This document shows, piece after piece, positions 2,383-5,388 of a stretch of 26,415 nt of DNA. The position numbers and the translations under genes are program-made. The stretch's first letter is position 1. Each line of letters starts with the position of its first letter. The DNA is from Lachnospiraceae bacterium (lineage in GTDB: Bacteria > Bacillota > Clostridia > Lachnospirales > Lachnospiraceae): assembly GCA_003489085.1 (NCBI GenBank), contig DNJM01000050.1, positions 22,549 to 48,963 on the forward strand, in the 5' to 3' direction. The notes beneath the pieces are model-generated. The model saw only the letters and a program-made list of their open reading frames with translations. It did no database searches and had not been told where the DNA came from.

Positions 2383-3708
2383 CTACGGAATAAGACGATT
2401 GATATCCCTGGGGAAAAGGGATGCATATCGTACATTTTCCTGTCCCAACAGCTTACTGGTAAACCGTTCCAGACCGAGTCCCAGCCCGCCATGTGGAGGC
2501 ATTCCATACTTATGCATCATCAGAAAGCTCTCGAAATCTTCCGCTTCCATCCCGCGGTTTTTCATTTTTTCCAGCTGCTCCCTGTAATTATGAATGCGCT
2601 GTCCGCCGGTTGTAATCTCCAGCCCCCGGAACAGTAAATCAAAGCTTAGCGTCTCTGCCGGATTCTCCCTGCTCTCCATTGCATAAAATGGTCTTTTCCT
2701 GCTCGGATAATGTGTTACAAATACGAATTCACTTCCCGTATGCTTCTGCATCCATTTACATAAAAGAGCTTCTTCTTCCGGTTCAAAGTCATCTCTTTCT
2801 CTGCTTTCTCTATGGTATTCTCCTGCGACCAGCTCCTTTGCCTCCCGGAACCGAATCGCCGGGATCGATTCCATCACCGGAAGCTTCACTCCAAGCAGAG
2901 CAAGCTCTTCCTGATATTCTTCCTGCAGCATCCTGAGCGCTGCCTTTAGCATACGGGTTTCTGTCTGCATCAGCTCTTCGAAGCCTGTGATATAGCTCAT
3001 TTCAAAGTCTACCCCGGTATACTCATTCAGATGCCGGGAGGTATCGTGCTTCTCTGCGCGGAAAACCGGTCCGATCTCATATACCTTCTCATATACGGCT
3101 GTCATCATCTGCTTATAGAACTGCGGACTCTGTGCCAGATAAGCCTGCTTGCCAAAATATTCCAGATAGAATACATTTGCGCCTCCCTCAGCACCTGCAG
3201 ATACCAGTTTCGGTGTATGAATTTCCGTAAAATGCTCCTCCTCAAAAAACGCACGAAATCCCCGGCAGATTCCTTCCTGGATTTTAAAAACAGCCCTCTG
3301 CTTTTCATTGCGCAGAGTAATCGGCCGGAAATCCAGCTGTTTTTCCAGCGATGCACTTAGCTGCTTCTGATTGATTACAATCGGCAGCTCCGCTTCCGGG
3401 GCGGACAGTACCTGCACTTCCAGCAGCCGAAGCTCGTAGCCGGCTCTGGAACGCTCCTCTTCTACCACCTGAGCCATGGCCACAATACAGCTTTCTTCCC
3501 GCAGCTCTTCCAGCGGAAACCCGGAAAACTCTTTGCTGTAAACACATTGCACGATGGCTCTTCTCATCCGCAGAAGAACGAACGCAAATCCACTCATTTT
3601 CCGCAGCTTATATACACTCCCATGAATCTGCAAGGTTTCTCCGATGTGCTTTTTCAATTCTTCTGCTTCCATTACACCCATTTTTCTGCTTCCTGTAATA
3701 TATTCCAT
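2383..3708 (-). CDS. aspS: Aspartyl-tRNA synthetase, short archaeal-type (no GAD insertion), 441 aa
   Basis: Class IIb motifs FTEIHTPKL, YLAQSPQFYKQ, GPVFRAEKHDTSRHLNEY, FDLLFRGLEITTGGQRIH, GMPPHGGLGLGLER. Start moved from 3747 to ATG 3708 because GGAGGAGG lies just upstream of it. Confidence 0.95.
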   Translation of the reverse strand: MEYITGSRKMGVMEAEELKKHIGETLQIHGSVYKLRKMSGFAFVLLRMRRAIVQCVYSKEFSGFPLEELREESCIVAMAQVVEEERSRAGYELRLLEVQVLSAPEAELPIVINQKQLSASLEKQLDFRPITLRNEKQRAVFKIQEGICRGFRAFFEEEHFTEIHTPKLVSAGAEGGANVFYLEYFGKQAYLAQSPQFYKQMMTAVYEKVYEIGPVFRAEKHDTSRHLNEYTGVDFEMSYITGFEELMQTETRMLKAALRMLQEEYQEELALLGVKLPVMESIPAIRFREAKELVAGEYHRESRERDDFEPEEEALLCKWMQKHTGSEFVFVTHYPSRKRPFYAMESRENPAETLSFDLLFRGLEITTGGQRIHNYREQLEKMKNRGMEAEDFESFLMMHKYGMPPHGGLGLGLERFTSKLLGQENVRYASLFPRDINRLIP

Positions 3709-3749
3709 ACGATTCCTCCTCCTTTCCCGTATGGTTACAATCCGCATTC

Positions 3750-3771
3750 AAAAAGGTCCACCGGACCTTTT
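3750..3771 (-). terminator. Second terminator-like hairpin in the aspS leader
   Basis: Perfect inverted repeat AAAAGGTCC-N3-GGACCTTTT with 5 U on the minus strand. Function uncertain. Confidence 0.4.
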
Positions 3772-3789
3772 CATCGCATGTCTGACAAC

Positions 3790-3835
3790 AAAAAAAGAAC
3801 CACACGGGTAACATGTAAATTTCTACCGGTGTGGT
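3790..3835 (-). terminator. Intrinsic terminator (attenuator) in the aspS leader
   Basis: On the minus strand ACCACACCGGTA...TACCCGTGTGGT pairs at 11 of 12 positions and is followed by TCTTTTTTT. It lies between the promoter and the aspS start. Confidence 0.8.
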
Positions 3836-3905
3836 CCCTATTATTCCTCCACACAGGTACAACGCTTTCAGCGCTTGTACCTGCAATTTCCTACAGCTAC
3901 AAGCG

Positions 3906-3956
3906 CTATCTATCGTCGTCCCTGTTCAGTTCTGTAAACAGTCTCTGGTTTCTCAT
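3906..3956 (-). CDS. Putative aspS leader peptide MRNQRLFTELNRDDDR (16 aa)
   Basis: ATG at 3956 with GTGAGG RBS upstream. Codons GAC GAC GAT then AGA TAG. It lies about 25 nt after the -10 box and directly before the alternative hairpins. Confidence 0.7.
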   Translation of the reverse strand: MRNQRLFTELNRDDDR

Positions 3957-3985
3957 AATAGCCGCCTCACTTTGCATTTTCAGCA

Positions 3986-4014
3986 AGTCTATCACAAATC
4001 CCCTGCTCTGTCAA
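3986..4014 (-). promoter_or_regulatory. Sigma-A promoter for leader-aspS
   Basis: TTGACA (4014-4009) - 17 nt - TAGACT (3991-3986), with extended -10 TG. Confidence 0.8.
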
Positions 4015-4023
4015 GCATTCTGT

Positions 4024-4053
4024 TTGACTTCCGGTTCGGCCGTATGATAGTAT
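4024..4053 (+). promoter_or_regulatory. Divergent sigma-A promoter for the MATE gene
   Basis: TTGACT (4024-4029) - 18 nt - TAGTAT (4048-4053) with TGn extension. Confidence 0.5.
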
Positions 4054-4077
4054 TAATCCATAAGGAGGTTGTTTCAC

Positions 4078-5388
4078 TTGCATATACAGAAAGAGTTTTT
4101 CAAATATGTTCTTCCTTCCATGCTGGCCTTCGCACTGTCCGGCGTCTACTCCATAGCAGACGGCTTCTTTGTCGGAAATGCCCTGGGCGATCAGGCATTG
4201 GCCGCGATCAACATCGCGTATCCTCTGACGGCCGTGATTCTGTCTGCCGGAACCGGTATCGGTCTGGGCGGAGCTGTGCAGTATGCCATCTGTCTGGGAA
4301 CCGGAAATACCCAAAAAAAAGACCAGTATTTTGGTCTTTCATCACTGCTGCTGGCCATAACCGGCATTTTACTGACTTTCCTGATTCTCATGACTGCGCC
4401 TTATGTTCTCGTACTGTTCGGAGCCTCCGGCGAGATTCTTGCACTGGCTGAGGAATACATCCGTTTTATTGCCTACGGCGCTGTCTTTCAGGTTATGGGA
4501 ACCGGAATGGTTCCGTTTATCCGGAATATGGGCGGAGCCATGGCTTCCATGTATGCCATGGTTGCCGGGTTTATGACCAATATCATTCTGGATTACCTTC
4601 TGGTATGGAAGCTCCCTTATGGTATGGCAGGCGCTGCAGCTGCTTCTTTTATAGGACAGGGGGTTACATTTTGGGTCTGTCTCATTTACCTGCTGCAAAA
4701 GAAGCAGAAGCTGCTTCTTCCCATGCGTTCTGAATGTTTTCTCATGCTGAAGCGGATCCTGACAGTCGGTATTTCTCCATTTGGACTGGCCTTTTCACCG
4801 AATCTGACCTTAATTTTGATCAATAAGAGTGCTGTCGTATCGGGCGGTAACTTTGCCGTTACCTGCTATGCGACCGTCAGCTACATTTCCTGTGTTGTCA
4901 TGCTTTTGCTGCAGGGCATCAGTGACGGAGCACAGCCTCTGATCAGCCTGTCCTATGGAAAAGGGGATGAAAAGACTGCGAAACAGTTCCGCAATCTTTC
5001 CTACCTCTTTTCTGCCGCCGTATCCGCCATCTGCATTCTGCTGCTCCTCCTGTGCAGAAGCCGGATTGCCGGATTATTCGGTGCTTCCGAAGCAGTTACC
5101 GCAGAAGTGTCAAAAATACTCCCACTATTTACCGTAGGCTTTCTTCTGGTCAGCTTTACACGCAGTACAACGGCTTATTTTTATGCTACGGAAAAGAATG
5201 CAGCAGCTTACCTGCTTATCTATGGAGAATCTCTGTGCCTGTTGATTCTGCTGCTGATCCTTCCTGTTCTCCTTGGTATCTGGGGAACCTGGATTTCTGT
5301 ACCTGCTTCACAGCTGTGTGTTCTGCTTCTTAGCATTGTCTTGCTCCGCTGGCCCCTGACAGCAAGGACTGCTTCTATCTCTCGATAA
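4078..5388 (+). CDS. MATE family efflux transporter
   Basis: KYVLPSMLAFALSGVYSIADGFFVGN...ALAAINIAYP, YGMAGAAAAS, GISDGAQPLISLSYG; about 12 hydrophobic segments. TTG start at 4078 chosen for its spacing from AAGGAGG (4062-4068). Confidence 0.92.
   Translation: MHIQKEFFKYVLPSMLAFALSGVYSIADGFFVGNALGDQALAAINIAYPLTAVILSAGTGIGLGGAVQYAICLGTGNTQKKDQYFGLSSLLLAITGILLTFLILMTAPYVLVLFGASGEILALAEEYIRFIAYGAVFQVMGTGMVPFIRNMGGAMASMYAMVAGFMTNIILDYLLVWKLPYGMAGAAAASFIGQGVTFWVCLIYLLQKKQKLLLPMRSECFLMLKRILTVGISPFGLAFSPNLTLILINKSAVVSGGNFAVTCYATVSYISCVVMLLLQGISDGAQPLISLSYGKGDEKTAKQFRNLSYLFSAAVSAICILLLLLCRSRIAGLFGASEAVTAEVSKILPLFTVGFLLVSFTRSTTAYFYATEKNAAAYLLIYGESLCLLILLLILPVLLGIWGTWISVPASQLCVLLLSIVLLRWPLTARTASISR

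Follow-up and report, generated by a model that had tools for sequence, protein, structure and literature searches.

Synthetase genes of Firmicutes are textbook targets of the T-box, and leader-peptide attenuation is a textbook mechanism of Proteobacteria. In E. coli, pheST is subject to attenuation through the pheM leader peptide, which senses charging of the cognate tRNA. For the archaeal-type aspartyl-tRNA synthetase (AspRS), Saad et al. are said to have described in 2012 T-box control of the AspRS and GatCAB genes of C. acetobutylicum. An "aspS motif" is reportedly to be found in Weinberg et al. 2017; the main text of that paper leaves aspS unmentioned. A leader peptide with cognate codons has been predicted in Firmicutes by Naville and Gautheret (2010), who placed a His leader peptide before the hisS paralogs (hisS*, hisZ) of bacilli, which by their account was the first such amino-acid-specific leader peptide beyond Proteobacteria and Actinobacteria (PMC2965389). 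In an incomplete coverage of the literature, neither an Asp-codon leader nor control of aspS by a leader peptide was found described, and a sequence-only reading of this DNA had likewise known of no such attenuator for clostridial aspS. The novelty is smaller than that reading assumed, because the hisS-paralog prediction in Firmicutes had already been published (PMC2965389).

Here we analyze a leader on the minus strand of a 26,415-nt stretch of Lachnospiraceae DNA, the whole of which we call the window. The comparative and modeled folding evidence described below points to a ribosome-mediated transcription attenuator that would sense the supply of Asp-tRNA(Asp) and control an accessory archaeal-type aspS, a reading to which we assign a probability of about 80%.

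Anatomy of the leader and its predicted states

The features of the leader and of the gene that follows it are collected in Table 1. The promoter, the ribosome-binding site and the 16-codon upstream ORF (uORF) are all present as the sequence-only reading had placed them, and the −10 hexamer is in addition preceded by a TG. Transcription is predicted to start ∼20−25 nt upstream of the uORF. An extended −10 element (TGnTAnnnT) lies upstream of the uORF in 58/74 relatives, mostly 27−32 nt before the ATG. An in-frame ATG farther upstream, at 3977, was considered as the uORF start and rejected, as it lacks a Shine-Dalgarno (SD) sequence and relatives do not conserve it.

Table 1. Positions of the leader elements, the two further hairpins and the aspS gene in the window
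Feature	Position	Strand	Basis or location
Sigma-70-type promoter TTGACA-17 nt-TAGACT, TG ahead of −10 hexamer	3986..4014	−	sequence
SD sequence GAGG of the leader ORF	3965..3968	−	sequence and relatives
Leader ORF, 16 codons plus stop, ATG at 3956, TAG at 3908-3906: MRNQRLFTELNRDDDR	3906..3956	−	
Regulatory run GAC GAC GAT, Asp codons 13-15 of the leader ORF	3912..3920	−	
Outer helix (putative anti-antiterminator), 5′ strand over the Asn/Arg/Asp codons; partner 3864-3853	3914..3925	−	RNAfold
Segment 1, inner hairpin 5′ arm; overlaps the uORF stop codon	3891..3907	−	
Segment 2, inner hairpin 3′ arm; segment 3 as alternative partner	3870..3886	−	
Segment 3, predicted switch strand with three alternative partners	3849..3866	−	
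Segment 4, terminator 5′ arm and antiterminator 3′ strand	3824..3837	−	
Segment 5, terminator 3′ arm (3810-3797) and seven-U tract (3796-3790)	3790..3810	−	
Second hairpin AAAAGGUCC-GGU-GGACCUUUUU, perfect 9 bp, flanked by A and U runs	3750..3771	−	between attenuator and aspS
Hairpin CCAUACGG/UCGUAUGG; aspS SD in loop, aspS AUG in stem	3705..3734	−	
Archaeal-type aspartyl-tRNA synthetase paralog, 441 aa	2383..3708	−	NCBIfam NF003483, 545 bits

The pairings that had been proposed among the segments hold up in the sequence. Of the 14 positions of segment 1 at 3907-3894, 13 pair with segment 2 (3883-3870), in a hairpin that extends to a GAAA loop. RNAfold places the Asp codons of the free RNA (3925-3914) on 3864-3853 as the base of one long stem, the upper part of which is the 1:2 helix (3907-3891 with 3886-3870, GAAA loop). 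The region as a whole is unusually stable: the fold of 3990-3780 has a z score of −5.66, and 0/200 shuffles fold equally well. Once segment 1 is masked, RNAfold predicts the alternative 2:3 hairpin, of 13 bp with one bulge. For the antiterminator, the sequence-only reading had paired GTGTGG (3854-3849) with CCACAC (3834-3829); this pairing is present, and the helix is longer than claimed, with 10 of 11 pairs between 3859-3849 and 3834-3824. Segment 3 is predicted to pair with the Asp codons in the free RNA, with segment 2 when a ribosome sits at the stop codon and with the terminator 5′ arm in the antiterminator. The terminator proposed between the leader ORF and aspS is likewise found, as a predicted intrinsic terminator spanning 3837-3790 with a 13-pair stem (3837-3824 with 3810-3797) and seven T in the DNA (seven U in the transcript) at 3796-3790.

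From these helices we propose that the leader, transcribed from about 20 nt 5′ of the 16-codon ORF, would take one of three states. In the free RNA, the Asn-Arg-Asp-Asp-Asp codons would hold segment 3, with the inner 1:2 hairpin stacked on that helix; with segment 3 locked, the 4:5 terminator would form and transcription would end at 3790. If a ribosome stalled with its A site on an Asp codon, it would keep the outer helix open and leave the 1:2 hairpin intact, so that the free segment 3 could take segment 4 once it is made, no terminator would form, and aspS would be transcribed. Should the ribosome instead reach the stop codon, located within segment 1, it would melt the 1:2 hairpin; segment 2 would then capture segment 3, and the terminator would form. 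The proposal supposes that a shortage of Asp-tRNA makes ribosomes stall, with termination and read-through responding as modeled.

Conservation, covariation and folding in relatives

A protein-guided search gave 80 related loci with 55−71% identity, almost all of them labeled Lachnospiraceae, and a covariance model (alignment A1, model R1) was built from 35 leaders. R1 matches 77/80 related loci on the sense strand. In the window's own genome the window leader is its single match, and this search found no second copy elsewhere in that genome. Among loci without an R1 match, the contigs of L034 and L053 give only about 230−275 nt upstream, L077 has the second uORF described below alone, and L079 has a T-box in the leader's stead.

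The conservation of the uORF and of its Asp run, which the sequence-only reading had named as a check, turned out in its favor: relatives preserve the uORF as a translated frame in which the Asp run keeps its codon position. An SD match of at least 4 nt with an in-frame ATG is found in 70/77 leaders and in 0/77 for either other frame. The leader peptide is 13−24 aa long, and its N-terminus varies while the frame stays open. Codon 12 or 13 encodes the first Asp in 70/74 complete uORFs, and the run is DDD in 69/74, with DND in 3, DTD in 1 and DAD in 1; synonymous versions in relatives include GAC GAT GAT, GAC GAC GAC and GAT GAT GAT. A run of three is short compared with those of hisL or pheL. 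Relatives strongly conserve the LNRDDD end of the peptide. Where the Asn and Arg codons ahead of the run change (to YG, HR or NW), the bases they pair with change as well, the Asp run remaining unchanged. In one subclade, for instance, Asn-Arg is replaced by Tyr-Gly or His-Arg and the pairing strand changes from CCUAUG to CCGUG, with DDD retained. The stop codon directly follows the last Asp in 12/74 leaders; therefore, the predicted stall and termination positions are one codon apart there.

Since the Asp codons are nearly invariant in nucleotides and also lie inside a helix, structure could account for some of their conservation. The same near invariance around the run, within a long and very stable hairpin, would also be expected if the leader were a structured RNA recognized by a factor, be it AspRS, uncharged tRNA or another protein, with the short ORF incidental or modulatory. 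The thrS gene of E. coli, where the synthetase autoregulates through mRNA mimicry, is a precedent for such control. We regard this explanation as very unlikely, because the fixed in-frame SD and ATG (70/77 against none in other frames) are hard to explain without translation, tRNA-like and T-box features were not found, and the exchange of the codon run with the downstream synthetase, described below, fits decoding rather than protein binding.

Every helix named in the sequence-only reading is kept in relatives and shows compensatory changes. Pairing was scored with shuffled versions and partners slid by 1−3 columns as controls. Paired cells amount to 95.6% for the outer helix over the Asp codons (35 sequences; 1 pair changed on both sides), 94.6% for the inner 1:2 hairpin (5 pairs), 90.8% for the terminator (8 pairs), 91.4% for the antiterminator 3:4 (3 pairs) and 96.3% for the 2:3 hairpin (3 pairs). 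All five helices exceed the shuffled controls, and the slid-partner versions pair in only 19−52% of cells. Covariation links the third base of the Asn codon to its segment 3 partner (UA 26, CG 5, UG 4), and the same segment 3 column covaries with the terminator 5′ arm (AU 26, GU 4, GC 3). A single column thus takes part in three alternative helices.

When the full-length leader is folded by minimum free energy, the terminator always wins, whatever part is masked. The model therefore rests on kinetics, as is expected for a kinetic switch, and because full-length thermodynamics cannot test it, we folded transcripts cut just before the terminator 3′ arm, with a ribosome mask that ends 10 nt beyond the first base of the A site. 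In these folds, segment 3 of the free RNA sits on the Asp codons as a protector helix in 49/63 leaders, and the antiterminator is predicted instead in 14/63. Placing the A site on Asp codon 1, 2 or 3 gives the antiterminator in 48, 49 and 45 of the 63, respectively. A ribosome at the stop codon leads to the 2:3 hairpin in 44/63. The window leader matches the free, stall and stop pattern exactly in silico. The masked folds thus reproduce, for the window and for most of the 63 relatives, the logic first proposed, in which a ribosome at the stop frees segment 2 for segment 3 and a stalled one leaves the 1:2 hairpin in place. That logic was incomplete, as it missed the pairing of the Asp codons themselves with the antiterminator strand; the prediction that untranslated RNA is also locked in a terminating form is our addition to it. 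Metatranscriptome runs that contain the organism gave few contigs of low depth, none over 3780-4000, with no readable ends, and weigh neither for nor against termination. The sequence features and their recurrence in relatives confirm the observation, and the modeled folds and the alignment together support its interpretation as an attenuator.

Because Firmicute synthetase genes are usually controlled by T-boxes, and because the distant homologue L079 does carry one (L079:313-558, with an AAC (Asn) specifier), a divergent T-box riboswitch missed by Rfam has to be weighed. The sequence-only reading had seen no T-box consensus, and the searches agree: Rfam gives no match at gathering score across the whole window, including the His_leader, Trp_leader and Leu/Phe leader families, and the T-box model (RF00230) has no match at E ≤ 10 on 3650-4120 (471 nt), yet this model does detect 11 T-boxes at other sites in the genome of the window. 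The other leaders behave alike, with no Rfam match at 19 related loci (0/19). The L079 T-box, moreover, stands before an archaeal-type aspS of the other paralog clade, recognized by a His/Pro signature. We give the T-box explanation almost no weight. The L079 locus and the leader-bearing loci present different sensors on paralogous synthetase genes.

The putatively regulated synthetase and possible reuse of the scaffold

The target had been named as aspS, and the gene does encode an AspRS; it is to be refined to an accessory archaeal-type paralog rather than the housekeeping aspS. A GNAT acetyltransferase gene lies downstream of it, and a MATE transporter gene diverges upstream. The genome of the window, a 2.3-Mb assembly that is 78% complete, holds a second archaeal-type aspS just upstream of gatB (L104, L105; contig C95:906-5835 of G000), 54% identical to the window copy. 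This gatB-linked copy carries the His/Pro signature, and neither the leader (by R1) nor a T-box was found at it. A bacterial-type aspS is present on contig C5, directly downstream of a gene that we take to be hisS, and asnS is also present. With these, AspRS genes number three, and both routes to Asn-tRNA are represented. Because the bacterial-type aspS and the second archaeal-type copy are there, the leader-controlled gene is an accessory copy. The leader would mark it as a starvation-induced one, which suggests a reason for the retention of three AspRS genes.

Residues at two sites separate the paralogs. In leader-linked orthologs, residue 32 is Tyr in 69/80 and residue 88 is Lys or Arg in 67/80 (Tyr32 and Arg88 in the window), whereas the other archaeal-type paralog has His in 17/17 and Pro in 16/17 at sites 32 and 88. 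From the work of Feng, Tumbula-Hansen and Soll (W26H/K85P), His plus Pro is said to mark a nondiscriminating archaeal AspRS, and an aromatic residue plus Lys a discriminating one. If this rule is right, the residues give a lead that the leader-controlled AspRS would charge tRNA(Asp) only, which would fit an Asp-only sensor. Standard annotation names this extra AspRS copy a tRNA(Asn)-charging enzyme.

Two more hairpins follow the attenuator, one ahead of aspS and one that takes in its start codon (Table 1). The one at 3750-3771, not seen in the relatives examined, may be a weak second terminator or a two-way terminator. The one at 3705-3734 has a CCAUACG...CGUAUGG arrangement that in relatives surrounds the start codon region of a second uORF; from this likeness, the window aspS seems to be placed where relatives have the second uORF. 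That uORF is conserved between the first terminator and aspS in 52/80 relatives (L010:1400-1500 and 51 others) and is absent from the window. Its SD (GAAAGGnnGUGAU) is very strong, and the peptide has a conserved start of the form M-G/R-H-x-D-D/Y-V/A-x-x-D and a variable tail; its codons 2−3 and 7−8 form a covarying hairpin with a 7-nt loop that contains GAY, and at several loci its stop codon overlaps the start of aspS or directly adjoins it. It has no Rfam match. It may add Asp sensing at a second level, that of translation.

Six of the 150 genera sampled from the family carry the leader, always next to an aspS gene. In five of these genera it directly precedes an ortholog with an identity of at least 60%. 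In the sixth (G041), a DDD leader, MYRLKFAKLHRDDDIWRL, precedes a bacterial-type aspS (706 bits). None of the ∼50 genera of the sample that have only the other archaeal-type paralog has the leader. Cultured carriers include Lachnoclostridium phytofermentans, Kineothrix alysoides, Lacrimispora xylanisolvens and Fusicatenibacter saccharivorans.

Outside the family, R1 finds a leader that shares the inner hairpin and the KQRL ending; its run is HHHH and the gene that follows is hisS. A pattern scan places HHHH leaders in seven genomes labeled Clostridiaceae; hisS downstream was confirmed by similarity in four genomes, and by a family scan at L125, which has an identical leader. The His-run leaders (e.g., MKTTIMLNQLHHHHKQRS) at L125 and L146-L152 stand before PRK12420-type hisS in Clostridiaceae assemblies. 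At L125, hisS is split into two overlapping ORFs (114 and 325 aa), from a frameshift or an assembly error. In another genus, leaders with Asn-rich runs that end in LNRGDNI or LNNGYNI precede genes resembling bacterial-type aspS, L124 alone being confirmed (454 bits); R1 matches 17/38 species, 14 of them with leaders of these types. Weak R1 matches (36−44 bits) also lie directly before a lysS-like gene at L140-L145, with a conserved uORF, MRNVANLQYKRYRQRLI. We discounted the lysS-linked matches as support for the scaffold, as that uORF has only one Lys codon.

The identity of the codon run changes with the downstream synthetase, being HHHH before hisS and DDD before bacterial-type aspS. This bears on another explanation of the conserved LNRDDD end, in which the uORF is translated and the cue is something other than Asp-tRNA: the acidic DDD/LNRDDD nascent chain would destabilize or arrest the ribosome and report Mg2+, translation rate or another cue (cf. 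mgtL). Early acidic runs in ORFs do affect ribosomes through intrinsic ribosome destabilization. Against it, the target of the DDD leader is always an AspRS, of two enzyme types; an HHHH run stands before hisS on the same scaffold; the middle Asp can be replaced by Asn, Thr or Ala; and the Asn and Arg codons vary with their RNA partners, which puts their conservation at the RNA level. We judge the acidic-peptide explanation to be unlikely and retain the attenuator that senses Asp-tRNA(Asp) as the preferred reading.

Taking the loci together, we lean slightly toward a wider proposal, that one homologous Clostridia scaffold has been retargeted among class II synthetase genes by rewriting of the first-strand codons, which would be Asp for archaeal- and bacterial-type aspS, His for hisS, Asn-rich for another aspS and perhaps a variant for lysS, with the second uORF adding further control in most relatives. 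If this is true, the scaffold would be a translation-based, evolvable alternative to the T-box. Its specificity seems to be switched by a few codons (Asp, His, Asn), which would make it a compact natural case of amino-acid sensor reprogramming.

Comparison with known attenuators

By the preferred reading, the element would be a leader-peptide attenuator that is specific for Asp and conserved in gut Lachnospiraceae. It shares with trpL, hisL, pheL, thrL, leuL and ilvL of E. coli and Salmonella a short translated leader with a run of cognate codons, the position of these codons in the first strand of mutually exclusive helices, the choice between an antiterminator and an intrinsic terminator, and, as predicted here, termination of the untranslated RNA (superattenuation). 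Unlike these classical leaders, it would sense Asp and regulate a tRNA synthetase rather than a biosynthetic operon, its host belongs to a Clostridia family in which T-boxes are the norm, and it has an extra 2:3 hairpin that would secure termination with the ribosome at the stop codon.

Leader-peptide attenuation of a synthetase gene is what it would have in common with pheM-pheST. The latter is proteobacterial and uses Phe codons, and, judged from the absent Rfam match, the two have no sequence or structural homology. With the T-box-controlled archaeal-type AspRS, the likeness is in the kind of target and in the coupling of synthetase expression to tRNA charging. The T-box, in contrast, reads uncharged tRNA directly and without translation, and the one at L079 has an AAC (Asn) specifier and belongs with the other paralog clade. 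Compared by description, the hisS-paralog leader of bacilli is alike in that a Firmicute synthetase paralog has a run of cognate codons in the stead of a T-box (PMC2965389). A His-run version of the scaffold analyzed here also stands before hisS, in Clostridiaceae. The published case (PMC2965389) is His in bacilli, whereas the case in the window is Asp in Lachnospiraceae.
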